Shown: in pieces, positions 1,865 to 62,639 of the stretch
Numbering within the stretch: the first letter of the stretch is position 1
Layout: every line of letters begins with the position of its first letter
From: a phage
DNA length: 64,000 nucleotides
Sequence record: OZ335960.1
Direction: 5' to 3' (one strand)
The notes under the pieces: generated by a model
Databases searched by the model: none
What the model saw: only the letters and a program-made list of their open reading frames with translations
Told to the model about the DNA's origin: nothing
Translations under genes and position numbers: made by a program

Positions 1865-3844
1865 ATGACTTTATTATCTCCGGGCATTGAGCTCAAAGAA
1901 ACTACGGTTCAAAGCACCGTGGTTAATAACTCTACTGGTACAGCAGCTTTGGCCGGTAAATTCCAGTGGGGTCCTGCTTTTCAAATTAAACAGGTTACAA
2001 ATGAAGTAGATTTAGTTAATACTTTTGGTCAACCTACAGCTGAAACTGCTGACTATTTTATGTCTGCAATGAATTTCTTACAATACGGAAATGATTTGCG
2101 AGTTGTGCGTGCTGTCGATAGAGATACCGCTAAAAACTCATCTCCGATTGCCGGTAATATTGAATACACTATTTCTACCCCAGGTAGTAACTACGCGGTT
2201 GGAGATAAAATCACGGTTAAGTATGTTTCAGAAGATGTTGAAACAGAATGTAAAGTTACCGAAGTAGATGCTGATGGAAAAATTAAGAAAATTAATATTC
2301 CTACCGCAAAAATTATCGCTAAAGCGAAAGAAGTAGGCGAATATCCAGCATTAGGTTCTAACTGGACCGCGGAAATTTCTTCGTCTTCCTCTGGTTTAGC
2401 TGCAGTAATAACTCTTGGAAAAATTATTACTGATTCTGGTATTTTATTAGCTGAAATTGAAAATGCTGAAGCTGCTATGACAGCTATTGACTTTCAAGCA
2501 AATCTCGAAAAATATGGAATTCCAGGAGTAGTAGCTCTTTATCCAGGCGAGTTGGGCGATAAAATCGAAATTGAAATCGTATCTAAAGCTGACTACGCAA
2601 AAGGTGCTTCTGCATTACTTCCAATTTATCCAGGTGGCGGAACACGCGCATCTACTGCCAAAGCAGTGTTTGGATATGGACCACAAACTGATTCACAATA
2701 CGCTATTATAGTTCGTCGCAACGATGCTATTGTTCAAAGCGTTGTTCTTTCAACAAAGCGTGGTGAAAAAGATATTTACGATAGTAACATCTATATTGAT
2801 GACTTTTTCGCAAAAGGTGGTTCAGAATATATTTTCGCAACTGCACAAAACTGGCCAGAAGGCTTCTCTGGAATTTTAACTCTGTCCGGTGGATTATCAT
2901 CAAATGCTGAAGTAACAGCAGGAGATTTGATGGAAGCTTGGGATTTCTTTGCTGACCGCGAATCTGTTGATGTTCAGTTGTTTATTGCGGGTTCTTGTGC
3001 CGGTGAATCTTTAGAAACAGCATCTACTGTCCAAAAACACGTCGTTTCAATTGGGGATGCTCGCCAAGATTGCTTAGTACTGTGCTCACCACCGCGTGAA
3101 ACTGTCGTTGGAATTCCTGTAACTCGTGCTGTTGATAACTTAGTCAATTGGAGAACCGCAGCAGGTTCATACACTGATAATAACTTTAATATCAGTTCAA
3201 CCTATGCAGCAATTGATGGTAACTACAAGTATCAGTATGACAAATATAATGATGTGAATCGTTGGGTTCCATTAGCAGCTGATATTGCTGGTTTATGCGC
3301 AAGAACAGATAACATTTCTCAGACTTGGATGTCTCCAGCTGGTTATAATCGTGGCCAGATTCTTAACGTTATTAAACTTGCTATTGAAACTCGCCAGGCG
3401 CAGCGTGACCGTTTATATCAAGAAGCTATCAACCCAGTAACTGGTACAGGTGGTGATGGTTACGTATTGTATGGTGATAAAACAGCTACTTCTGTTCCTT
3501 CTCCATTTGATCGTATTAACGTTCGTCGTCTGTTTAATATGTTGAAAACGAATATCGGACGTAGTTCAAAATATCGTTTGTTCGAATTAAACAACGCGTT
3601 TACTCGTTCATCGTTCCGCACAGAAACTTCCCAGTACTTACAGGGAATTAAAGCTCTCGGTGGAATTTATGAATATCGTGTAGTTTGCGATACAACAAAT
3701 AACACTCCGTCAGTAATTGATAGAAATGAGTTTGTTGCAACATTCTACATCCAACCGGCTAGAAGCATTAACTACATTACCTTAAACTTCGTAGCAACTG
3801 CTACTGGTGCAGATTTCGATGAGTTAACTGGTCTTGCAGGTTAA
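1865..3844 (+). CDS. 18: Tail sheath protein gp18
   Basis: 659-aa ORF, same length as T4 gp18; conserved position 17-18-19. Confidence 0.95.
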   Translation: MTLLSPGIELKETTVQSTVVNNSTGTAALAGKFQWGPAFQIKQVTNEVDLVNTFGQPTAETADYFMSAMNFLQYGNDLRVVRAVDRDTAKNSSPIAGNIEYTISTPGSNYAVGDKITVKYVSEDVETECKVTEVDADGKIKKINIPTAKIIAKAKEVGEYPALGSNWTAEISSSSSGLAAVITLGKIITDSGILLAEIENAEAAMTAIDFQANLEKYGIPGVVALYPGELGDKIEIEIVSKADYAKGASALLPIYPGGGTRASTAKAVFGYGPQTDSQYAIIVRRNDAIVQSVVLSTKRGEKDIYDSNIYIDDFFAKGGSEYIFATAQNWPEGFSGILTLSGGLSSNAEVTAGDLMEAWDFFADRESVDVQLFIAGSCAGESLETASTVQKHVVSIGDARQDCLVLCSPPRETVVGIPVTRAVDNLVNWRTAAGSYTDNNFNISSTYAAIDGNYKYQYDKYNDVNRWVPLAADIAGLCARTDNISQTWMSPAGYNRGQILNVIKLAIETRQAQRDRLYQEAINPVTGTGGDGYVLYGDKTATSVPSPFDRINVRRLFNMLKTNIGRSSKYRLFELNNAFTRSSFRTETSQYLQGIKALGGIYEYRVVCDTTNNTPSVIDRNEFVATFYIQPARSINYITLNFVATATGADFDELTGLAG

Positions 3845-12834: not shown

Positions 12835-14253
12835 TTATGGATAGGTATAGATGATACCAGTTTCTAAAGCAGTTTTATGAATGATGTATCCATTACGTGA
12901 TTCTTGAACATCAACTTCTGGATAGTCTTTCATCATCTTCTGAAGAGTGTAACGATGCAGGTAGTATTTACTATCTGGATCTTCAGTTTTCCAATCTTTA
13001 CCTTCTTCGGTCATTTTTTGGATTTCATCCATAACCCACCAACCGCACCAGATATAAGCTGAAGTACGATGTGGAAGAGGATGAACATAAGGCAATTCAC
13101 CTTCTGGTTCCGGAGCAACTTTATCAGTTACCTGAACTTGGCCTGTTGCTTTAACTGTTTTACTATCATAGTCGGTTGCTGTAACGACAGCAGTAACTTC
13201 AATAGTTTGACTTCCAATAGATGAGGTGTCAACGGTGTATACGTTAGTTGACACTTCTACAGGAGAAGAATCTTTCTTCCATGAATAAGTAATTTGTGCT
13301 GCTTCAGGTGCTCCAGTAACATTAGCCGTAAATGTAGCCGAAGCATCTTGCTGAACGTTAATAGAAGGAGGAGTCAATGTAACCTGTGGATTCATTGTTT
13401 TCTTATTAACTGTCAATGATACTTCATTAGAAGTAACTTCCTTTTCATTGTAATTTTCTGCGGTTACTTGCGCTACACATTTAATTCTTTTTACTCCACT
13501 TGTAGTTGGAGTATAGTTAAATGTAGAGTTAGTTTCTCCACCAATTTGAGAATCATCTACATACCATTTATATGTAGCAGCCGCTCCATCAGGTTGAGAA
13601 GCTAAGGCAGCAGTAAATTGAACTGGGGTTCCAATTACTCCAGCTGAAGGACTATTAGGAGTTACAGCTAAGGTAGTTGTCTGCGTCTTTTTATTAACTG
13701 TCAGTGACACTTCATTAGAAGTAACGCTCAGTGCATCATAATCTGTCGCAGTTACTTGAGCTATGCACTTGATTTTTTTAACTCCACTTGTGGTAGGAGT
13801 GTAATTGAATGTAGCAGAAGTTGCTTCGCTTACAGGAGAACCGTCAACGTGCCATTGATACGTGGCAGTTGCGCCCGATGGCTGTGAAGCTAAGGCAGCA
13901 GTAAATTGGACAGCTGTTCCGATTACTCCAGCTGGAGGACTAGCAGGAGTTACTGCCAAGGTAGTTGTTTGTGTTTTATTTTTAACTGTGATAGTTGTAC
14001 TAATTTCTGCTGTTTCAGGTTCAGATTCTGCAACTTGATTGGTTGCAACTACTTTAATAGTCTTTTGACCGGCAGGTCCTTTTAGTACATAACTAAAAGT
14101 TGCTGACGTTTCTTCCTGTGGAGCGTCGTCTACAGTCCAAGCATATGTAATAGGTCCATCTCCAGTTTGACCACTGGGTGTAGCAGTAAACTGCTGAGTC
14201 TGATCTATAACTCCAGTAGGTGTTTTAGGAGTTATATCAACTGTAAAAGCCAT
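12835..14253 (-). CDS. hoc: Hoc, highly immunogenic outer capsid protein, with one extra Ig-like domain
   Basis: 472-aa ORF; N-terminal MAFTVDITPKTPTGVIDQ and C-terminal capsid-binding region (WCGWWVMDEIQK) as in T4 Hoc (376 aa as I recall); contains two consecutive ~96-aa near-identical Ig-like units. Confidence 0.92.
   Translation of the reverse strand: MAFTVDITPKTPTGVIDQTQQFTATPSGQTGDGPITYAWTVDDAPQEETSATFSYVLKGPAGQKTIKVVATNQVAESEPETAEISTTITVKNKTQTTTLAVTPASPPAGVIGTAVQFTAALASQPSGATATYQWHVDGSPVSEATSATFNYTPTTSGVKKIKCIAQVTATDYDALSVTSNEVSLTVNKKTQTTTLAVTPNSPSAGVIGTPVQFTAALASQPDGAAATYKWYVDDSQIGGETNSTFNYTPTTSGVKRIKCVAQVTAENYNEKEVTSNEVSLTVNKKTMNPQVTLTPPSINVQQDASATFTANVTGAPEAAQITYSWKKDSSPVEVSTNVYTVDTSSIGSQTIEVTAVVTATDYDSKTVKATGQVQVTDKVAPEPEGELPYVHPLPHRTSAYIWCGWWVMDEIQKMTEEGKDWKTEDPDSKYYLHRYTLQKMMKDYPEVDVQESRNGYIIHKTALETGIIYTYP
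13402..13977 (-). repeat. Tandem direct repeat of ~288 bp (2 copies) encoding duplicated Hoc Ig-like domain
   Basis: Hoc residues ~93-188 and ~189-284 are near-identical (KTQTTTLAVTP...NEVSLTVNK twice); the DNA is visibly similar between the two copies. Confidence 0.85.
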
Positions 14254-34639: not shown

Positions 34640-34992
34640 TGCCTGCGCAAGCCCTCAAGGGGAACATAGGTTTTGTATATTTACCGACAGGATAACCATA
34701 AACCCGTCAACATACCTTATAGCTCTTATCTGTTGCACACCGTTAGCTTAAAGGTTCCGGGTTCGATTTCTCGAGGATAAGATATATACTGATGGATATA
34801 TAGGCCTTGAGGCGTACTCCCGATTAGCCATCACCTCGGGGTAGCATGCACTTGCCGCTATAAAATAACATTCAAGAGGTACACCGTAAAACTGCCGGGG
34901 TCTTAAAACTATAATGATTCGCAAATCATTAATCAGACAGTTCGACGGCTCCTCGTTTTAACTTCACACTAAGGCAGTGACTCTCCAATAAA
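34640..34992. other. 352-bp ORF-free, GC-elevated, inverted-repeat-rich segment between rIII and the 30.9-position ORF; candidate structured RNA or gene remnant
   Basis: No ORF above ~25 codons on either strand; stops in all frames; ~44% GC by hand count against visibly AT-rich flanking DNA; several local and long-range inverted repeats. Confidence 0.5.
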
Positions 34993-53954: not shown

Positions 53955-56900
53955 ATGGCCGAGATTAAAAGAAAGTTCAGAGCAGAAGATGGTCTGGACG
54001 CAGGTGGCGATAAAATAATCAACGTAGCTTTAGCTGATCGTGCCGTAGGAACTGACGGTGTTAACGTTGATTACCTAATTCAAGAAAACACAGTTCAACA
54101 ATACGATCCAACTCGTGGATATTTAAAAGATTTTGTAATCATTTATGATAACCGCTTTTGGGCTGCTATAAATGATATTCCAAAACCAGCGGGAGCTTTT
54201 AATAGCGTACGTTGGAGAGCATTACGTACTGATGCAAACTGGACAACTGTTTCGTCAGGACCTTATCAATTAAAGTCAGGTGAATCAATTTCAGTTAATA
54301 CTGCAGCAGGAAATGATATCACATTTACTTTGCCAACTTCTCCAATTGATGGAGATACTATCGTTCTTCAAGATATTGGTGGAAAACCTGGAGTTAACCA
54401 AGTTTTAATTACCGCTCCAGTGCAAAGCATTGTAAATTTTAGAGGTCAGCAAGTACGATCAGTATTAATGACCCATCCAAAATCACAGATAGTTTTAATT
54501 TTTAGTAATCGTCTGTGGCAAATGTATGTTGCTGATTATAGCAGAGAAGCTGTAATTGTGACGCCAGCAAGTCTCTATCAGGCGCAGTCAAACGATTTTA
54601 TCGTACGCAGATTTACTTCTGCTGCTGCAATTAATATTAAACTTCCTAGATTTGCTAATCATGGCGATATTATTAATTTCGTTGATTTAGATAAATTAAA
54701 TCCTCTTTATCATACAATTGTCACGACATATGATGAAACAACTTCAGTACAAGAAGTTGGAACTCATTCTATTGAAGGTCGTACATCGATTGATGGTTTC
54801 TTGATGTATGATGATAATGAGAAATTATGGAGATTATTTGACGGGGATAGTAAAGCACGTTTACGCGTTATAACAACTAATTCTAATATTCGTCCAAACG
54901 AAGAAGTTATGGTATTTGGTGCGAATAATGGAACAACTCAAACAATTGAACTTCAGCTTCCGACCGATATTTCCATTGGCGATACTGTTAAAATTTCCAT
55001 GAATTACATGAGAAAAGGCCAAACAGTTAAAATAAAAGCTGCCGGTGAAGATAAAATTGCTTCTTCAGTTCAATTGCTGCAATTCCCAAAACGTTCAGAA
55101 TATCCACCTGAAGCTGAATGGGTGACTGTTCAAGAATTAGTTTTTAACGGTGAAACTAATTATGTTCCAGTTTTACAACTTGCTTATATCGAAGATTCTG
55201 ACGGAAAATACTGGGTTGTACAGCAAAACGTTCCAACTGTAGAAAGAGTTGATTCTTTAAATGATTCTACTAGAGCAAGATTAGGCGTGATTGCTTTAGC
55301 TACACAAGCTCAAGCTAACGTCGATTTAGAAAATTCTCCACAAAAAGAATTAGCAATTACTCCAGAAACATTAGCTAACCGTACTGCTACAGAAACTCGT
55401 AGAGGTATCGCAAGAATAGCAACCACTGCTCAAGTGAACCAGGACACTACATTCTCTTTTGCTGATGATATTATCATCACTCCTAAAAAGCTGAATGAAA
55501 GAACTGCTACAGAAACTCGTAGAGGTGTTGCTGAAATTGCTACGCAACAAGAAACTAATACAGGTACTGATGATACTACAATCATCACTCCTAAAAAGCT
55601 TCAAGCTCGACAAGGTTCTGAATCATTATCGGGTATTGTAACCTTTGTATCTACCGCGGGAGCTACTCCAGCTTCTAGTCGTGAATTAAATGGTACAAAT
55701 GTTTACAATAAAAACACTAATAATTTAGTTGTTTCGCCTAAAGCTCTGGATCAGTATAAAGCTACTCCAACACAGCAAGGCGCAGTAATTTTAGCAGTTG
55801 AAAGTGAAGTAATTGCTGGACAGAGTCAAGAAGGATGGGCAAATGCGGTTGTAACGCCAGAAACGTTACATAAAAAGACATCAACTGATGGAAGAATTGG
55901 TTTAATTGAAATTGCTACGCAAAGTGAAGTTAATACAGGAACTGATTATACTCGTGCAGTCACTCCTAAAACTTTAAATGACCGTAAAGCAACTGAAAGT
56001 TTAAGTGGTATAGCTGAAATTGCTACGCAAGTTGAATTCGACGCAGGCGTCGACGATACTCGTATCTCTACACCATTAAAAATTAAAACCAGATTTAATA
56101 GTACTGATCGTACTTCTGTTGTTGCTCTATCTGGATTAGTTGAATCAGGAACTCTCTGGGACCATTATACCCTTAATATTCTTGAAGCAAATGAGACACA
56201 GCGTGGTACACTTCGTGTAGCTACACAAGTTGAAGCTGCTGCAGGGACATTAGATAATGTTCTAATAACTCCTAAAAAGCTTTTAGGTACTAAATCTACT
56301 GAAGCGCAAGAAGGCGTTATTAAAGTTGCAACTCAAGTTGAAACTGTAGCTGGAACGTCAGCAAATACTGCTGTATCTCCAAAAAATTTAAAATGGATTG
56401 TACAGAGTGAACCTACTTGGGCAGCAACTACTTTGATAAGAGGTTTTGTTAAAACTTCATCTGGTTCAATTACATTCGTCGGTAATGATACCGTTGGTTC
56501 AACACAGTCATTAGAATTATACGAGAAAAATAGCTATGCAGTATCTCCATATGAATTAAACCGTGTATTAGCAAATTATTTGCCGTTAAAGGCAAAAGCT
56601 GCTGACACGAATTTATTGGATGGTCTAGATTCATCCCAGTTCATTCGTAGGGATATTGCGCAGACGGTTAATGGTTCACTAACCTTAACTCAACAAACGA
56701 ATCTGAGTGCCCCTCTTGTATCATCTAGTACTGCTACGTTTGGTGGATCAGTTTCGGCAAATAGTACACTAACTATTTCTAATACTGGAACAGCAACTAA
56801 ATTGATTTTTGAGAAAGGACCTCAAACTGGAACGAACCCAGCGCAGACGATGACTGTCAAAGTGTGGGGAAATCAATTTAGTGGGGAATCAGATACAACA

Positions 56901-57824
56901 CGTTCTACTGTATTTGAAGTTAGTGATGAAACGTCTAGTCATTTTTATTCTCAGCGCAATAAAGCTGGTAATATAACATTTAATATCAACGGTACAGTAA
57001 CTCCGATAAATGTTAATGCTTCAGGAACATTGAATGCAAATGGTGTAGCAACATTTGGTAATTCAGTCACTGCAAGTGGTGAAATTATTTCTCGAAGCGC
57101 AAATGCTTTCCGTGCTATTAACGGAAATTATGGTTTTATTGTTCGCAATGACGGGTCAGTAACGAATTTTATGCTTACTGCATCGGGCGATCAGACTGGT
57201 GGATTTAATGGATTACGTCCATTAACTATTAATAATGCATCTGGTCAAGTAACGATTGGTGAAAGCTTAATCATTGCCAAAGGTGCTACTATAAATTCAG
57301 GTGGTTTAACTGTTAACTCGAGAATTCGTTCTCAGGGTACTAAAACATCTGATTTATATACCCGTGCGCCAACATCTGATACTGTAGGATTCTGGTCAAT
57401 CGATATTAATGATTCAGCTACTTATAACCAGTTCCCAGGTTATTTTAAAATGGTTGAAAAAACTAATGAAGTGACTGGACTTCCATACTTAGAACGTGGC
57501 GAAGAAGTTAAATCTCCTGGTACATTGACTCAGTTTGGTAACACACTCGATTCGCTTTACCAAGATTGGATTACTTATCCAACGACTCCAGAAGCACGTA
57601 CCACTCGCTGGACACGTACATGGCAGAAAACCAAAAACTCTTGGTCAAGTTTTGTTCAGGTATTTGATGGAGGTAACCCTCCTCAACCGTCTGATATCGG
57701 TGCTTTACCATCTGATAATGCTACAATGGGGAATCTTACTATTCGTGATTTCTTACGAATTGGTAATGTTCGCATTATTCCTGACCCAGTGAATAAAACG
57801 GTTAAATTTGAATGGGTTGAATAA
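53955..57824 (+). CDS. 34: Long tail fibre proximal subunit gp34
   Basis: 1289-aa ORF (T4 gp34 length); internal degenerate repeats (ITPKKL...ATE..RG.A.IAT). Confidence 0.93.
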   Translation: MAEIKRKFRAEDGLDAGGDKIINVALADRAVGTDGVNVDYLIQENTVQQYDPTRGYLKDFVIIYDNRFWAAINDIPKPAGAFNSVRWRALRTDANWTTVSSGPYQLKSGESISVNTAAGNDITFTLPTSPIDGDTIVLQDIGGKPGVNQVLITAPVQSIVNFRGQQVRSVLMTHPKSQIVLIFSNRLWQMYVADYSREAVIVTPASLYQAQSNDFIVRRFTSAAAINIKLPRFANHGDIINFVDLDKLNPLYHTIVTTYDETTSVQEVGTHSIEGRTSIDGFLMYDDNEKLWRLFDGDSKARLRVITTNSNIRPNEEVMVFGANNGTTQTIELQLPTDISIGDTVKISMNYMRKGQTVKIKAAGEDKIASSVQLLQFPKRSEYPPEAEWVTVQELVFNGETNYVPVLQLAYIEDSDGKYWVVQQNVPTVERVDSLNDSTRARLGVIALATQAQANVDLENSPQKELAITPETLANRTATETRRGIARIATTAQVNQDTTFSFADDIIITPKKLNERTATETRRGVAEIATQQETNTGTDDTTIITPKKLQARQGSESLSGIVTFVSTAGATPASSRELNGTNVYNKNTNNLVVSPKALDQYKATPTQQGAVILAVESEVIAGQSQEGWANAVVTPETLHKKTSTDGRIGLIEIATQSEVNTGTDYTRAVTPKTLNDRKATESLSGIAEIATQVEFDAGVDDTRISTPLKIKTRFNSTDRTSVVALSGLVESGTLWDHYTLNILEANETQRGTLRVATQVEAAAGTLDNVLITPKKLLGTKSTEAQEGVIKVATQVETVAGTSANTAVSPKNLKWIVQSEPTWAATTLIRGFVKTSSGSITFVGNDTVGSTQSLELYEKNSYAVSPYELNRVLANYLPLKAKAADTNLLDGLDSSQFIRRDIAQTVNGSLTLTQQTNLSAPLVSSSTATFGGSVSANSTLTISNTGTATKLIFEKGPQTGTNPAQTMTVKVWGNQFSGESDTTRSTVFEVSDETSSHFYSQRNKAGNITFNINGTVTPINVNASGTLNANGVATFGNSVTASGEIISRSANAFRAINGNYGFIVRNDGSVTNFMLTASGDQTGGFNGLRPLTINNASGQVTIGESLIIAKGATINSGGLTVNSRIRSQGTKTSDLYTRAPTSDTVGFWSIDINDSATYNQFPGYFKMVEKTNEVTGLPYLERGEEVKSPGTLTQFGNTLDSLYQDWITYPTTPEARTTRWTRTWQKTKNSWSSFVQVFDGGNPPQPSDIGALPSDNATMGNLTIRDFLRIGNVRIIPDPVNKTVKFEWVE

Positions 57825-57832
57825 GAGGTATT

Positions 57833-58948
57833 ATGGAAAAATTTATGGCAGAGTTTGGACAAGGATATGTCCAAACGCCATTTTTATCGGAAAGTAATTC
57901 AGTAAGATATAAAATAAGTATAGCGGGTTCTTGCCCGCTTTCTACGGCAGGACCATATGTTAAATTTCAGGATAATCTTGTCGGAAGTCAAACATTTAGC
58001 GCAGGTCTTCATTTAAGAGTTTTTGATCCTTCCACCGGAGCATTAGTTGACAGTAAGTCATATGCTTTTTCGACTTCAAATGATACTACATCAGCTGCTT
58101 TTGTTAGTTTCATGAATTCTTTTTCAAACAACAGACTTGTTGCTATATTAACTAATGGAAAGGTTAATTTTCCTCCTGAGGTAGTATCTTGGCTAAGAGC
58201 TGCAGGAACGTCTGCTTTTCCATCTGATTCTATATTGTCAAGATTTGACGTATCATATGCTGCCTTTTATACTTCTTCCAAAAGAGCTATTGCATTAGAA
58301 CACGTTAAACTAAGTAATAGAAAAAGCACAGATGACTATCAAACTATTTTAGATGTTGTATTTGACAGTTTAGAAGACGTTGGAGCTACAGGATTTCCTA
58401 AAAGAACATACGAAAGCGTTGAGCAATTTATGTCAGCAGTCGGTGGAACTAATAACGAAATTGCACGTTTACCAACTTCATCTGCGATAAGTAAACTCTC
58501 TGATTATAATTTAATTCCTGGCGATGTTCTTTATCTTAAAGCGCAGTTATATGCTGACGCAGATTTACTTGCGCTTGGAACTACAAATGTATCAATCCGT
58601 TTTTATGATGAATCGAATGGATATATTTCTTCAACACATGCCGAGTTTACTGGACAAGCTGGGTCATGGGAATTAAAGGAAGATTATGTAGTTATTCCAG
58701 AAAATGCAGTAGGATTTACGATATATGCACAAAGAACTGCACAAGCAGGTCAAGGCGGCATGAGAAATTTAAGCTTTTCTGAAGTATCAAGAAATGGTGG
58801 AATTTCAAAACCTGCTGAATTTGGCGTCAATGGTATTCGAGTTAATTATGTCTGTGAATCTGCTTCACCTCCGGATATAATGGTACTTCCTACGCAAGCA
58901 TCGTCTAAAACTGGTAAAGTGTTTGGACAAGAATTTAGAGAAGTTTAA
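57833..58948 (+). CDS. 35: Long tail fibre hinge protein gp35
   Basis: 371-aa ORF, synteny. Confidence 0.9.
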   Translation: MEKFMAEFGQGYVQTPFLSESNSVRYKISIAGSCPLSTAGPYVKFQDNLVGSQTFSAGLHLRVFDPSTGALVDSKSYAFSTSNDTTSAAFVSFMNSFSNNRLVAILTNGKVNFPPEVVSWLRAAGTSAFPSDSILSRFDVSYAAFYTSSKRAIALEHVKLSNRKSTDDYQTILDVVFDSLEDVGATGFPKRTYESVEQFMSAVGGTNNEIARLPTSSAISKLSDYNLIPGDVLYLKAQLYADADLLALGTTNVSIRFYDESNGYISSTHAEFTGQAGSWELKEDYVVIPENAVGFTIYAQRTAQAGQGGMRNLSFSEVSRNGGISKPAEFGVNGIRVNYVCESASPPDIMVLPTQASSKTGKVFGQEFREV

Positions 58949-59010: not shown

Positions 59011-59667
59011 ATGGCTGATTTAAAAGTAGGTTCAACAACTGGAGGCTCTGTCATTTGGCATCAAGGAAATTTTCCATTGAATCCAGCCGGTGACGATGTA
59101 CTCTATAAATCATTTAAAATATATTCAGAATATAATAAACCACAAGCTGCTGATAACGATTTCGTTTCTAAAGCTAATGGTGGTACGTATTTAAATAAAG
59201 TAATTTTTAATAAAGGAATGACTGTTCCTGGTGCAGGGTCAGGTGACAATGGTATTTTTGCTGGTCCTGGTGATAATGCCACGTATGATACTACAAATAT
59301 GGATATTGTTTCATGGTATGGTATTGGTTTTAAATCATCGCAGGGTTCAGCAGGTAGAACTGTAGTAATTAACACACGAAATGGAGATATTAGCTCAAAG
59401 GGTGTAATTGAAGCATCACAAATACGCGCAACTTCATTATCTCCAGTAAATAATTATGACCTTACGCGGAAAGATTATGTCGATGGAGCAATAAATATTG
59501 TTACAGCAAACGCAAACTCTAGGGTATTACGCTCTGGAGACACTATGACAGGTAACTTAACCGCGCCAAACCTTTTTTCACAGAATCCTGCATCTCAACC
59601 CTCACATGTTCCACGATTTGATCAAATTGTTATTAAGGATTCTGTTCAAGATTTCGGCTATTATTAA
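59011..59667 (+). CDS. 36: Long tail fibre distal connector gp36
   Basis: 218-aa ORF, synteny. Confidence 0.88.
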   Translation: MADLKVGSTTGGSVIWHQGNFPLNPAGDDVLYKSFKIYSEYNKPQAADNDFVSKANGGTYLNKVIFNKGMTVPGAGSGDNGIFAGPGDNATYDTTNMDIVSWYGIGFKSSQGSAGRTVVINTRNGDISSKGVIEASQIRATSLSPVNNYDLTRKDYVDGAINIVTANANSRVLRSGDTMTGNLTAPNLFSQNPASQPSHVPRFDQIVIKDSVQDFGYY

Positions 59668-59675
59668 GAGGACTT

Positions 59676-61125
59676 ATGGCTACTTTAAAACAAATACAAT
59701 TTAAAAGAAGCAAAACCGCAGGAGCACGTCCTGCCGCTTCAGTATTAGCCGAAGGTGAATTGGCTATAAACTTAAAAGACCGCGTACTTTTTACTAAAGA
59801 CGACCAAGGAAATATCATTGATCTTGGTTTTGCTAAGGGCGGTAGTATTGACGGGAATGTTATTCATATAGGAAACTATAATCAAACTGGTGATTATACT
59901 TTAAATGGCACCTTCACTCAGACGGGTAATTTTAATTTAATCGGTATTGCTCGAGTAACTCGCGATATTATTGCCGCCGGGCAGATTATGACCGAAGGCG
60001 GAGAACTTATTACAAAAAGTTCAGGTACATCACATGTTCGTTTTTTCGATAGCAATAGCCGCGAGCGCGGAATCATTTATTCTCCTGCTAATGATGGATT
60101 AACTACACAAGTACTTAATATCAGGGTTCAAGACTACGCCGCTGGTAGCGAAAGCACCTATGCATTTTCAGGCAATGGCCTATTTACTTCACCTGAAGTA
60201 TCAGCATGGAAATCTATGTCAACTCCTCAGATTTTGACCGATAAAGTTATTACAGATGGGAAGAAGACAGGCGATTATGACATCTATTCATTAGCAAATA
60301 ACACTCCATTGGCAGAAAGCGAAACGGCTATTAACCACCTCCGTGTTATGCGAAATGCCGTAGGATCTGGTATATTCCATGAAGTTAAAGATAACGACGG
60401 GATAACCTGGTACGCCGGTGACGGATTAGATGCCTATCTTTGGTCGTTTACCTGGTCCGGTGGATTGAAAGCAGGCCATTCTATTTCTATAGGTCTTCCG
60501 GGCGGCTCTAAAGGATATTCTGAATTAGGGACTGCTTCGATTGCTCTTGGTGATAATGATACTTGGTGATAATGATACTGGTTTAGTCCATGGCGGTGAT
60601 GGCCGAATCAATATGGTTGCCAATGGTATACATATTGCAAACTGGGGCGCAGGCTATCAATCTCATCCTGGGCTTTGGGATTCAACCGGTGCTTTTTGGA
60701 CAGAAGTTGGAAGAGCTATCGTTTCTCATGGGCATCTCGTTCAGGCAAATGATAGTTATTCAACGTTTGTCCGTGATGTTTATGTCCGTTCTGATATTCG
60801 CGTTAAAAAAGACCTCGTTAAATTTGAAAATGCTTCTCAGAAGCTTTCTAAAATTAACGGTTACACTTATATGCAGAAGCGAGGCCTAGATGGAGAAGGT
60901 AATCAGAAATGGGAACCTAACGCTGGTTTAATTGCTCAAGAAGTTCAAGCTATTTTACCAGAATTAGTTGAAGGCGACCCTGATGGCGAAGCTTTACTTC
61001 GTTTGAACTATAACGGTGTAATTGGTTTAAATACAGCTGCAATCAATGAGCATACCGCAGAAATTGCAGAACTTAAATCAGAAATCGAAGAACTTAAAGC
61101 ATTAGTTAAATCGTTGTTAAAATAA
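59676..61125 (+). pseudogene. 37: Long tail fibre distal subunit gene 37, frameshifted by a 16-bp tandem duplication; C-terminal intramolecular-chaperone-like domain
   Basis: N-terminus MATLKQIQFKRSK...AINLKDR...DLGFAKGG is gp37-like; reading frame stops at 60567-60569 just after the duplicated ttggtgataatgatac; the +1 frame continues without stop to 61125 and ends ...SDIRVKKDL...GLIAQEVQAILPELV...[19 protein letters not shown], a motif I associate with tail-fibre intramolecular chaperones. Confidence 0.8.
60547..60578 (+). repeat. Perfect 16-bp tandem duplication (ttggtgataatgatac x2) inside gene 37
   Basis: Read directly from sequence; 16 is not a multiple of 3, so the second copy shifts the frame. 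Confidence 0.95.
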
Positions 61126-61144
61126 TAAGAGGGGCTTCGGTCCC

Positions 61145-61951
61145 TTGGAGGTTTATATGGCAGTTGAAGGACCGTGGGTAGGATGGTCTGCAGTAGTTAA
61201 TACAGGACAAAATTGGATGGGTGGTGCGGCCCAACGATTAAGAATGGGCATTCCGTTCTGGATGAGTAATATGATAGGTCGATCCGTTGAAGTAATTCAC
61301 ACACTTGGAGCAGACCATAACTTCAATGGTCAATGGTTCCGAGATAGATGTTTTGAGGCAGGTAGTGCACCCATAGTGTTTAATATCACAGGAAATTTGG
61401 TATCATATTCTAGAGATGTTCCTTTATTCTTCATGTATGGAGATACACCAAATGAATATGTTCAGTTGAATATTAGCGGTGGAGCTCATATGTGGGGCAG
61501 AGGTGGACAAGGTGGGTGGACTCATTCTGGTGGAGATGGTAATGGTCAACAGGGTGGACATTGTATTCAAAATGACATTGGTGGTCGATTAAGAATTAAT
61601 AATGGTGGAGTAATTTGTGGCGGCGGTGGCGGCGGTGGCGGCATCGCTTATCGTCCTCACTCTGGTGCAAACTGGCAAGATATTGGTGGCGGTGGAGGAA
61701 GACCATTTGGCCCAGGAGGTGGCGGTGGTTATTCAGGAGGTGCTGCTTCTTATGACGGTCCAGGAGGCGGTTATAATTATGGTAATGCTCACTCTGGACA
61801 GGGTGGTGATGCTGGCGGAAATGGACAAAATGCCTGGTATGATGGTGGTAAAGTTCTAAAAGTTGGCGCTGGCGGGGCTGCAGGTTATGCTGTAATAGGG
61901 TCTGCTCCAACATGGCAAAATGTTGGAATAATATATGGTCCAAGAGTATAA
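61145..61951 (+). CDS. 38: T2-type receptor-recognising adhesin gp38 (glycine-rich motifs)
   Basis: 268-aa ORF; [25 protein letters not shown] and poly-Gly motifs ([19 protein letters not shown]) as I recall for T2/K3-type gp38; true start may be ATG at 61157. Confidence 0.85.
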
Positions 61952-61982: not shown

Positions 61983-62639
61983 ATGGCAGCACCTAGAATA
62001 TCATTTTCGCCCTCTGATATTCTGTTTGGTGTTCTAGATCGCTTGTTCAAAGATAACGCTACCGGGAAAGTTCTTGCTTCCCGGGTAGCTGTCGTAATTC
62101 TTTTGTTTATAATGGCGATTGTTTGGTATAGGGGAGATAGTTTCTTTGAGTACTATAAGCAATCAAAGTATGAAACATACAGTGAAATTATTGAAAAGGA
62201 AAGAAATGCACGCTTTGAATCTGTCGCCCTGGAACAACTCCAGATAGTTCATATATCATCTGAGGCAGACTTTAGTGCGGTGTATTCTTTCCGCCCTAAA
62301 AACTTAAACTATTTTGTTGATATTATAGCATATGAAGGAAAATTACCTTCAACAATAAGTGAAAAATCACTTGGAGGATATCCTGTTGATAAAACTATGG
62401 ATGAATATGCAGTTCATTTAAATGGACGTCATTATTATTCCAACTCAAAATTTGCTTTTTTACCAACCAAAAAGCCTACTCCCGAAATAAATTACATGTA
62501 CAGTTGTCCATATTTCAATTTGGATAATATCTATGCTGGAACAATAACCATGTACTGGTATAGAAATGATCATATAAGTAATGACCGCCTTGAATCAATA
62601 TGTGCTCAGGCGGCCAGAATATTAGGAAGGGCTAAATAA
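61983..62639 (+). CDS. t: Holin T
   Basis: 218-aa ORF (T4 holin length); single N-terminal TM segment (VAVVILLFIMAIVWY) and large periplasmic domain. Confidence 0.93.
   Translation: MAAPRISFSPSDILFGVLDRLFKDNATGKVLASRVAVVILLFIMAIVWYRGDSFFEYYKQSKYETYSEIIEKERNARFESVALEQLQIVHISSEADFSAVYSFRPKNLNYFVDIIAYEGKLPSTISEKSLGGYPVDKTMDEYAVHLNGRHYYSNSKFAFLPTKKPTPEINYMYSCPYFNLDNIYAGTITMYWYRNDHISNDRLESICAQAARILGRAK

Follow-up and report, generated by a model that had tools for sequence, protein, structure and literature searches.

The question raised by this locus is whether the distal long tail fibre gene of a T4-like phage, written at positions 59676-61125 of the window (the whole stretch of DNA that was analysed, 64,000 nt in length), can really be as short and as broken as it appears there. 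The initial annotation had described this gene 37 as frameshifted and unusually short, and comparison with full-length relatives bears out both points: a 16-nt tandem duplication puts the 3' part of the gene in the +1 frame, and the gp38-adhesin phages ESh16, Sfk20 and KNP5 have a product of 1103 aa at this place. The present analysis goes beyond that description in two respects. The missing DNA extends from the first copy of an (L/I)GDNDTG motif to the second, and both motif copies, standing side by side, make up the 16-nt duplicate.

The tail-fibre module as written

The window covers structural and tail-fibre genes of a T4-like phage (Tequatrovirus) whose gp38 adhesin is of the T2 type. The best matches in the collections searched reach ~94% identity over 24 kb, so that the phage itself is absent from these collections. 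Position 1 of the window is the first base of gene 17 (terL), whose product (1-1830) is 100% identical to gp17 of phage wV7, and this start at terL suggests a processed, re-oriented genome record. The fibre genes are arranged as g34 (53955-57824), g35 (57833-58948), g36 (59011-59667, plus strand), g37 (59676-61125), g38 (61157-61951, plus strand), holin t (61983-62639) and then asiA (minus strand), which is the gene order of phages with a gp37 of the T2/T6/S16 type.

Both direct neighbours of gene 37 are intact. The 218-aa ORF of gene 36 encodes the hinge, or distal connector, that binds the gp37 N-terminus; it is 98.6% identical to wV7 gp36 over its full length, and the exact protein occurs in 43 blocks of a public collection, where the gene 37 frame beside it measures 900-1103 aa among the 10 places shown, except in KNP1 (L009). 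Gene 38 encodes a T2-type adhesin of 264 aa (Pfam GP38, E=8.8e-68; Gp38_N, E=6e-21) with 96-97% amino acid identity to gp38 of wV7 and Ec_MI-02. In an exact-protein look-up, the exact products of gene 34, gene 35, gene 38 and the first gene 37 frame (ORF1) were not on record.

ORF1 occupies 59676-60569 (plus strand) and ends after 297 codons with ...GDNDTW and the stop TGA (60567-60569), directly followed by a TAA; this is the same ORF and the same stop that had been noted initially. By itself it gives no Pfam match. It aligns with residues 1-277 of T4 gp37 at 41% identity (E=3e-50), which upholds the N-terminal alignment proposed for the first ~300 residues, and the 1026 aa given initially for T4 gp37 is the correct length. 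The second frame, +1 to the first, is open from 60529 to the TAA at 61123-61125, again as described, and its translation reads ...GDNDTGLVHGG...SDIRVKKDL...LIAQEVQAILPELV... to the C-terminal end. The chaperone-like signature that had been suspected in this C-terminus was checked with the Pfam profile Peptidase_S74 (PF13884, an intramolecular chaperone), which matches at 60790-60969 (plus strand) with E=3.6e-13 and 50 bits against a cut-off of 22, at residues 77-136 of the translation from 60562, beginning at the Ser of SDIRVKKDL. The tip on which the gp38 adhesin docks is, as written, not translated as part of the fibre, just as had been pointed out, and ORF1 contains neither the tip nor the chaperone domain.

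In addition to gene 37, we have also checked the remainder of the window by comparing 96 wV7 proteins with it. Gene 37 was the sole conserved gene that is not full length in one frame; its lesion is thus not part of a general pattern of indel errors, and a generally error-ridden assembly is ruled out by the intact state of the other conserved genes in this comparison.

As judged from its N-terminal block, synteny, tip and S74 domain, the locus can be assigned to the T2/S16-type gp37 family, in which the distal subunit carries a C-terminal Peptidase_S74 chaperone and is capped by a separate gp38 adhesin. The closest examples are the Shigella phages ESh16, Sfk20, pSs-1 and KNP5, each with 1103 aa. 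The window resembles them in its first 887 nt (97-98% identical), its last 563 nt (97% identical), its S74 domain and its gp38 family; the conserved N-terminal region lies directly downstream of gene 36, and the gp38-docking tip with Peptidase_S74 is present, though in the +1 frame with respect to the N-terminal block. Unlike these relatives, it is without the 1862-nt central cassette, carries 16 duplicated bases and is not one frame, so that neither the long central shaft (relatives with both blocks total ~670-1170 aa) nor a continuous frame from the N-terminus to the chaperone domain is found. T4 gp37 is a more distant case, with ~280 N-terminal residues homologous to the window and the same position after gene 36, but its C-terminal adhesin domain is unrelated to the tip and S74 domain of the window. 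In T4, gp38 is a chaperone and not an adhesin (PMC3157838; annotation).

Two homology blocks and the GDNDTG motif pair

Gene 37 measures 3312 nt in the close relatives ESh16, Sfk20 and KNP5, and 900-1114 aa in other relatives. The sequence (L/I)GDNDTG is present twice in the full-length gene of these close relatives, at residues ~292 and ~918, with a spacing of 1878 nt that keeps the frame. Nucleotides 1-887 of the window gene align with nucleotides 1-887 of ESh16, and nucleotides 888-1450 with nucleotides 2750-3312, both halves being ~97.2% identical to this one full-length gene. The 5' homology block (59676-60562, plus strand), which encodes the ~295 conserved residues at the N-terminus of the distal half-fibre, stops within motif 1 (...IALGDNDT) and shows 94-98% identity to gene 37 of ESh16, Sfk20, KNP5 and Ec_MI-02. 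The 3' homology block (60563-61125, plus strand) lies in the +1 frame, encodes the gp38-docking tip and the C-terminal intramolecular chaperone, and is 98.6% identical to Ec_YwIITB1. The 626 codons that separate the two GDNDTG motifs in ESh16, Sfk20 and KNP5 are absent from the window gene, in line with the initial impression that most of the shaft is missing, and the lost cassette was not found elsewhere in the window, where only a weak paralogy to gp34 was detected.

In gene 37 of T2-type Tequatrovirus phages, a hypervariable cassette in the centre is flanked by two conserved blocks, the 3' one encoding the tip and the S74 chaperone. The 5' block has matches in hundreds of phage records, which stop at nucleotides 884-899 among the matches listed, and the 3' block has matches in 179 records, all of those listed starting at window position 60563; thus, the two motifs mark the borders of the hypervariable cassette across Tequatrovirus. 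From these borders, the GDNDTG motif pair looks like a pair of cassette-exchange joints. Exchange mediated by conserved motifs is established for T-even fibre genes (Tetart et al. 1998, as cited in PMC3157838), and the motif pair fits this picture. Our literature search found no papers on the GDNDTG motif itself.

At the junction, Tandem Repeats Finder identified the exact 16-nt unit CTTGGTGATAATGATA in 2.1 copies with 100% matches (60546-60579); no other exact tandem duplication in the 64-kb window has a period that is not a multiple of 3. The two full copies span 60546-60577. Motif 1, which lies where the 5' block ends, is represented by copy 1 (60546-60561, plus strand), whose upstream context GCTTCGATTGCT matches motif 1 of the relatives. 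Copy 2 (60562-60577, plus strand) represents motif 2 and lies where the 3' block begins, all alignments of this block starting at 60563; the context downstream of copy 2, CTGGTTTAGTCCATGGCGGTGATGGCC, is shared without change by motif 2 of Sfk20, Ec_MI-02 and KNP5. The 5' block runs up to ...GATAATGATAC of motif 1 and is directly adjoined by the 3' block, from TTGGTGATAATGATAC... of motif 2, with 1862 nt absent between them. Because the motif copies are unmerged and each block keeps its own, the 16 nt stand twice in tandem, the 3' block is shifted into the +1 frame and the first frame runs into the stop TGA TAA. Upon removal of one 16-nt copy, a continuous 1434-nt ORF of 477 aa is obtained, close to the ~480 codons estimated earlier for the joined gene. 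The shortness of gene 37 and its frameshift are, on this anatomy, a single lesion.

When the window gene was compared with six full-length relatives, the 5' alignment ended at gene nucleotide 887/888 (window 60562/3) and the 3' alignment began at nucleotide 888 (60563), so the blocks abut without overlap and two partial motif copies remain. The contexts of motif 1 and motif 2 are paralogous over ~33 residues (GDNDTG-x5-DG-x4-V-x-NG, BLASTP E=4e-6), and the exact run that they share in the relatives is at most 14 nt long, which offers little for homologous recombination to act on. If a join were made out of register by 16 nt inside this run, it would rest on ~1 nt of microhomology, as read from the sequence. 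Deletion by homologous recombination between direct repeats is expected to leave one repeat copy and overlapping blocks, and neither is seen in the window.

We have searched widely for a comparable gene. Matches were obtained in 629 phage records, and in none of them do the two blocks lie near each other. Among 1.84 billion representative proteins, searched exhaustively, both blocks did not occur together in any protein of ⩽500 aa, the shortest two-block relatives having ~670-750 aa. The junction scan pattern was validated on the window and on the metagenome sequence L013 described below; neither the duplicated nor the clean junction pattern matched in IMG/VR, JGI metagenomes or GTDB genomes. 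A literature search for a frameshifted or truncated gp37 gave nothing directly relevant. The initial annotation had suggested that a close relative with the same short architecture and normal infectivity would make the length natural. No isolate genome searched has such a gene 37; a clean 477-aa version (P0001) was found on a metagenome scaffold.

P0001 is encoded on the 165.6-kb scaffold CHIN23-1_SAMN13279041 scaffold_47 (L013 10001-11434) and is also present in a Logan assembly. It shares with the window the fusion of motif 1 to motif 2 (...IALGDNDTGLVHGGDG...), the repaired length and the gene neighbourhood, at 88% amino acid identity; unlike the window gene, it has a single motif copy and is in frame. 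Its homology blocks, 1-893 and 866-1434, overlap by ~28 nt, whereas those of the window abut, and single copy and overlap together are what a deletion between direct repeats predicts. At the DNA level, L013 is only 86-88% identical to the window and the junction-proximal bases differ, and thus its event is independent of that in the window. The authenticity of P0001 is uncertain, since the gp38 encoded just downstream (L013 11465-12184, 239 aa) is, compared with Sfk20 gp38, without exactly one hypervariable segment (~20 aa) between poly-glycine motifs, which resembles a motif-to-motif collapse in that assembly. With this second motif-to-motif loss, the scaffold may carry a natural adhesin module that has been shortened twice, or else its assembly may have collapsed here.

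Origin of the junction

Taken together, these features lead us to regard gene 37 in the record as probably a non-functional composite, in which the two blocks were joined end to end during assembly, scaffolding or consensus building. In such a mis-join, the 5' block up to motif 1 would have been attached to the 3' block from motif 2, with loss of the central cassette, and neither motif copy would have been merged at the join, which would leave the 16-nt tandem duplicate and the +1 shift behind. We infer an in silico origin for the join, as opposed to an event in the phage, and the actual phage most likely carries a normal gp37 of ~1100 aa, like that of ESh16 or pSs-1. The junction anatomy points to this origin rather than to phage biology, since a motif-paired deletion is expected to leave a single motif copy and overlapping blocks, whereas abutting blocks explain the deletion and the duplication together. 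A simple diagnostic can be drawn from this difference, namely that homology blocks abut in a mis-join and overlap in a true repeat-mediated deletion.

The location of the lesion is consistent with a mis-join as well, since gene 37 is a known assembly trouble spot, and it is in this most variable and repetitive gene that the lesion is found. In the public record of phage KNP1 (KX452694.1), the same region is an assembly gap, with a run of 510 N inside gene 37 (L009 10924-11433) that stops 18 nt short of motif 2. Truncated or partial gene 37 products have been deposited as well (P0002, P0005 and P0023). P0002, the 754-aa gp37 of Escherichia phage vB_EcoM_005, is truncated with a ~35-aa internal deletion and an out-of-frame tail (...STRCCDVQ), and P0023, from phage BYEP02, is truncated at 467 aa; disrupted gene 37 annotations are thus not rare in public phage genomes. 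Gene 37 is essential in T4, where particles without long tail fibres are essentially non-infectious, and therefore a plaque-forming isolate cannot hold the allele as written as its true consensus.

Several points count against a mis-join. We are unable to name a specific assembler or processing step that would give an untrimmed 16-nt overlap; an untrimmed De Bruijn overlap at k=17 (k-1 = 16) is an example of such a route, an unproven one. The clean, in-frame, motif-to-motif deletion in the independent 165.6-kb metagenome scaffold and the Logan contig means that deletions of this kind can form, or be produced by assembly, on more than one occasion. Among the spontaneous frameshift mutations of T4, moreover, short exact tandem duplications make up a classical class.

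Viable gene 37 deletions that evolve within a few laboratory passages also count against a mis-join. In PP01, a T-even phage with a gp38 adhesin, internal deletions of gene 37 appear in a few passages, and the shortened distal fibre is tolerated with better adsorption (PMC6027323). These viable deletions (579-686 bp, within nucleotides 1945-2650) are not bounded by GDNDTG motifs, whereas the window gene is missing 1862 nt and its frame is broken. Two of the gene 37 deletions in the viable evolved PP01 populations, of 620 and 686 bp, are not multiples of three, and the reading frame of the deletions is not discussed in PMC6027323.

A real but defective allele, with the 1.86-kb deletion and the 16-nt duplication both present in the sequenced DNA, appears less likely than a mis-join, and we would hold it to be doubtful. 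It could have arisen by a motif-to-motif deletion followed by a tandem-duplication frameshift, or by one illegitimate joining event, and wild-type phage could have complemented it as part of a mixed population in a high-multiplicity lysate. It could also come from non-viable DNA; in either case the assembler would have chosen that path. The rest of the window does resemble an accurate assembly, gene 37 deletions do appear quickly in culture (PMC6027323), and the motif-to-motif deletion is seen independently in L013. The first route, however, needs two rare events at exactly the same 16 nt, a deletion and then a lethal tandem duplication, and the second needs a join on ~1 nt of microhomology beside 14-22 nt of in-register homology. 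Such an allele would be lethal alone, and since headful packaging gives no benefit to a shorter genome, it should not dominate a stock; in addition, the exact ORF1 product was found nowhere else.

It is still less probable that the phage makes a real in-frame mini-gp37 of 477 aa, in which the N-terminal 291 residues are fused at the GDNDTG module to the gp38-docking tip, and that only the extra 16 nt are artefactual. Such a fibre is not absurd in the light of P0001, the paralogous motif contexts and the PP01 deletions. P0001, of 477 aa, is exactly such a protein (88% identity at 100% coverage); the two motif contexts share the ~33-residue paralogy described above, and adsorption can improve with shorter gene 37 alleles (PMC6027323). 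The tip of S16 gp37 has been crystallised as the construct 6F45_A, with which the repaired protein can be aligned over its residues 283-477 (E=8.8e-46), beginning about nine residues before motif 2 and reaching the C-terminus. This construct reportedly trimerises and binds gp38, which would make the fusion structurally plausible. A clean real junction, on the other hand, gives no reason for a 16-nt duplication error exactly there, while the abutting blocks account for the deletion and the duplication jointly. Among the records searched, the architecture occurs in no isolate, and no cultured phage has a short gp37 of this form; the L013 gp38 also lacks its hypervariable segment between poly-Gly motifs, suggesting a collapse there too.

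The genuine deletion that such a fibre implies would have been a recombination between the paralogous GDNDTG modules that excised the whole shaft and fused the gp36-attaching part to a self-sufficient gp38-docking tip. A 477-aa 'mini' distal half-fibre would then have arisen independently in two lineages, the window phage and L013, and the extra 16 nt would stem either from a secondary error or from a mutation that inactivated the gene very recently. We find this unlikely too, to a similar degree.

Products of the locus and its neighbourhood

If the record were taken as written, ORF1 would yield the N-terminal ~295 residues without the S74 intramolecular chaperone. Fibres that contain an S74 domain are not expected to trimerise without it, and trimerisation is thus not expected of the ORF1 product. 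The 3' frame has no convincing start codon, the ATG at 60556 having a GGTGA only 2 nt upstream; its product, if made, would be a near equivalent of the S16 gp37 tip construct, unconnected to the fibre. Programmed recoding could restore the frame either by a +1 shift or by a bypass of the T4 gene 60 kind, in which ribosomes would leave the ACT at 60561-60563, land 16 nt further on at its identical counterpart (60577-60579) and yield exactly the 477-aa product; we hold it to be extremely improbable. The duplication does provide matched take-off and landing codons 16 nt apart with a stop nearby, but the stop is not adjacent to the productive take-off codon, and inspection of the 41-nt overlap (60529-60569) revealed no slippery +1 site. 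Local RNA structure was weaker than in shuffled controls (z=+1.57), no known gene-60-type signals are present, and no relative in the phage records, IMG/VR, JGI metagenomes or GTDB genomes has the duplication. A programmed frameshift of the prfB type and a bypass of the T4 gene 60 type were accordingly rejected on slippery site, RNA structure and conservation alike.

The distinction between a mis-join and a real deletion matters for the use of the record. If the junction is an artefact, the main host-range determinant of the phage is given wrongly in the deposited genome, and the record should be corrected before it is used for host-range prediction, phage-therapy documentation or tail-fibre engineering. 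If the deletion is real, it would show that the two GDNDTG modules form a natural joint at which the entire gp37 shaft can be excised and exchanged, and that a T-even phage is able to work with a distal half-fibre of less than half the normal length; a working short fibre would also bear on how fibre length affects baseplate triggering.

Three further observations were made in the window. A mosaic boundary lies between gene 37 and gene 38 (60563-61951), the gene 37 blocks being ESh16/pSs-1-like (97%) and gp38 wV7/Ec_MI-02-like, with only ~73% identity between the window gp38 and that of Sfk20. Fragmentary matches to the 66-aa wV7 ORF F412_gp067 occur in three frames, with ~100 extra bases, at 34640-34990 (minus strand), a variable spacer between 30.9 and rIII that holds no clear ORF. 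Within hoc (minus strand), a 288-nt tandem repeat in 2 copies with 77% identity was detected at 13403-13989; it is taken to be the repeated Ig-like domains of this head decoration protein, and would then be ordinary.
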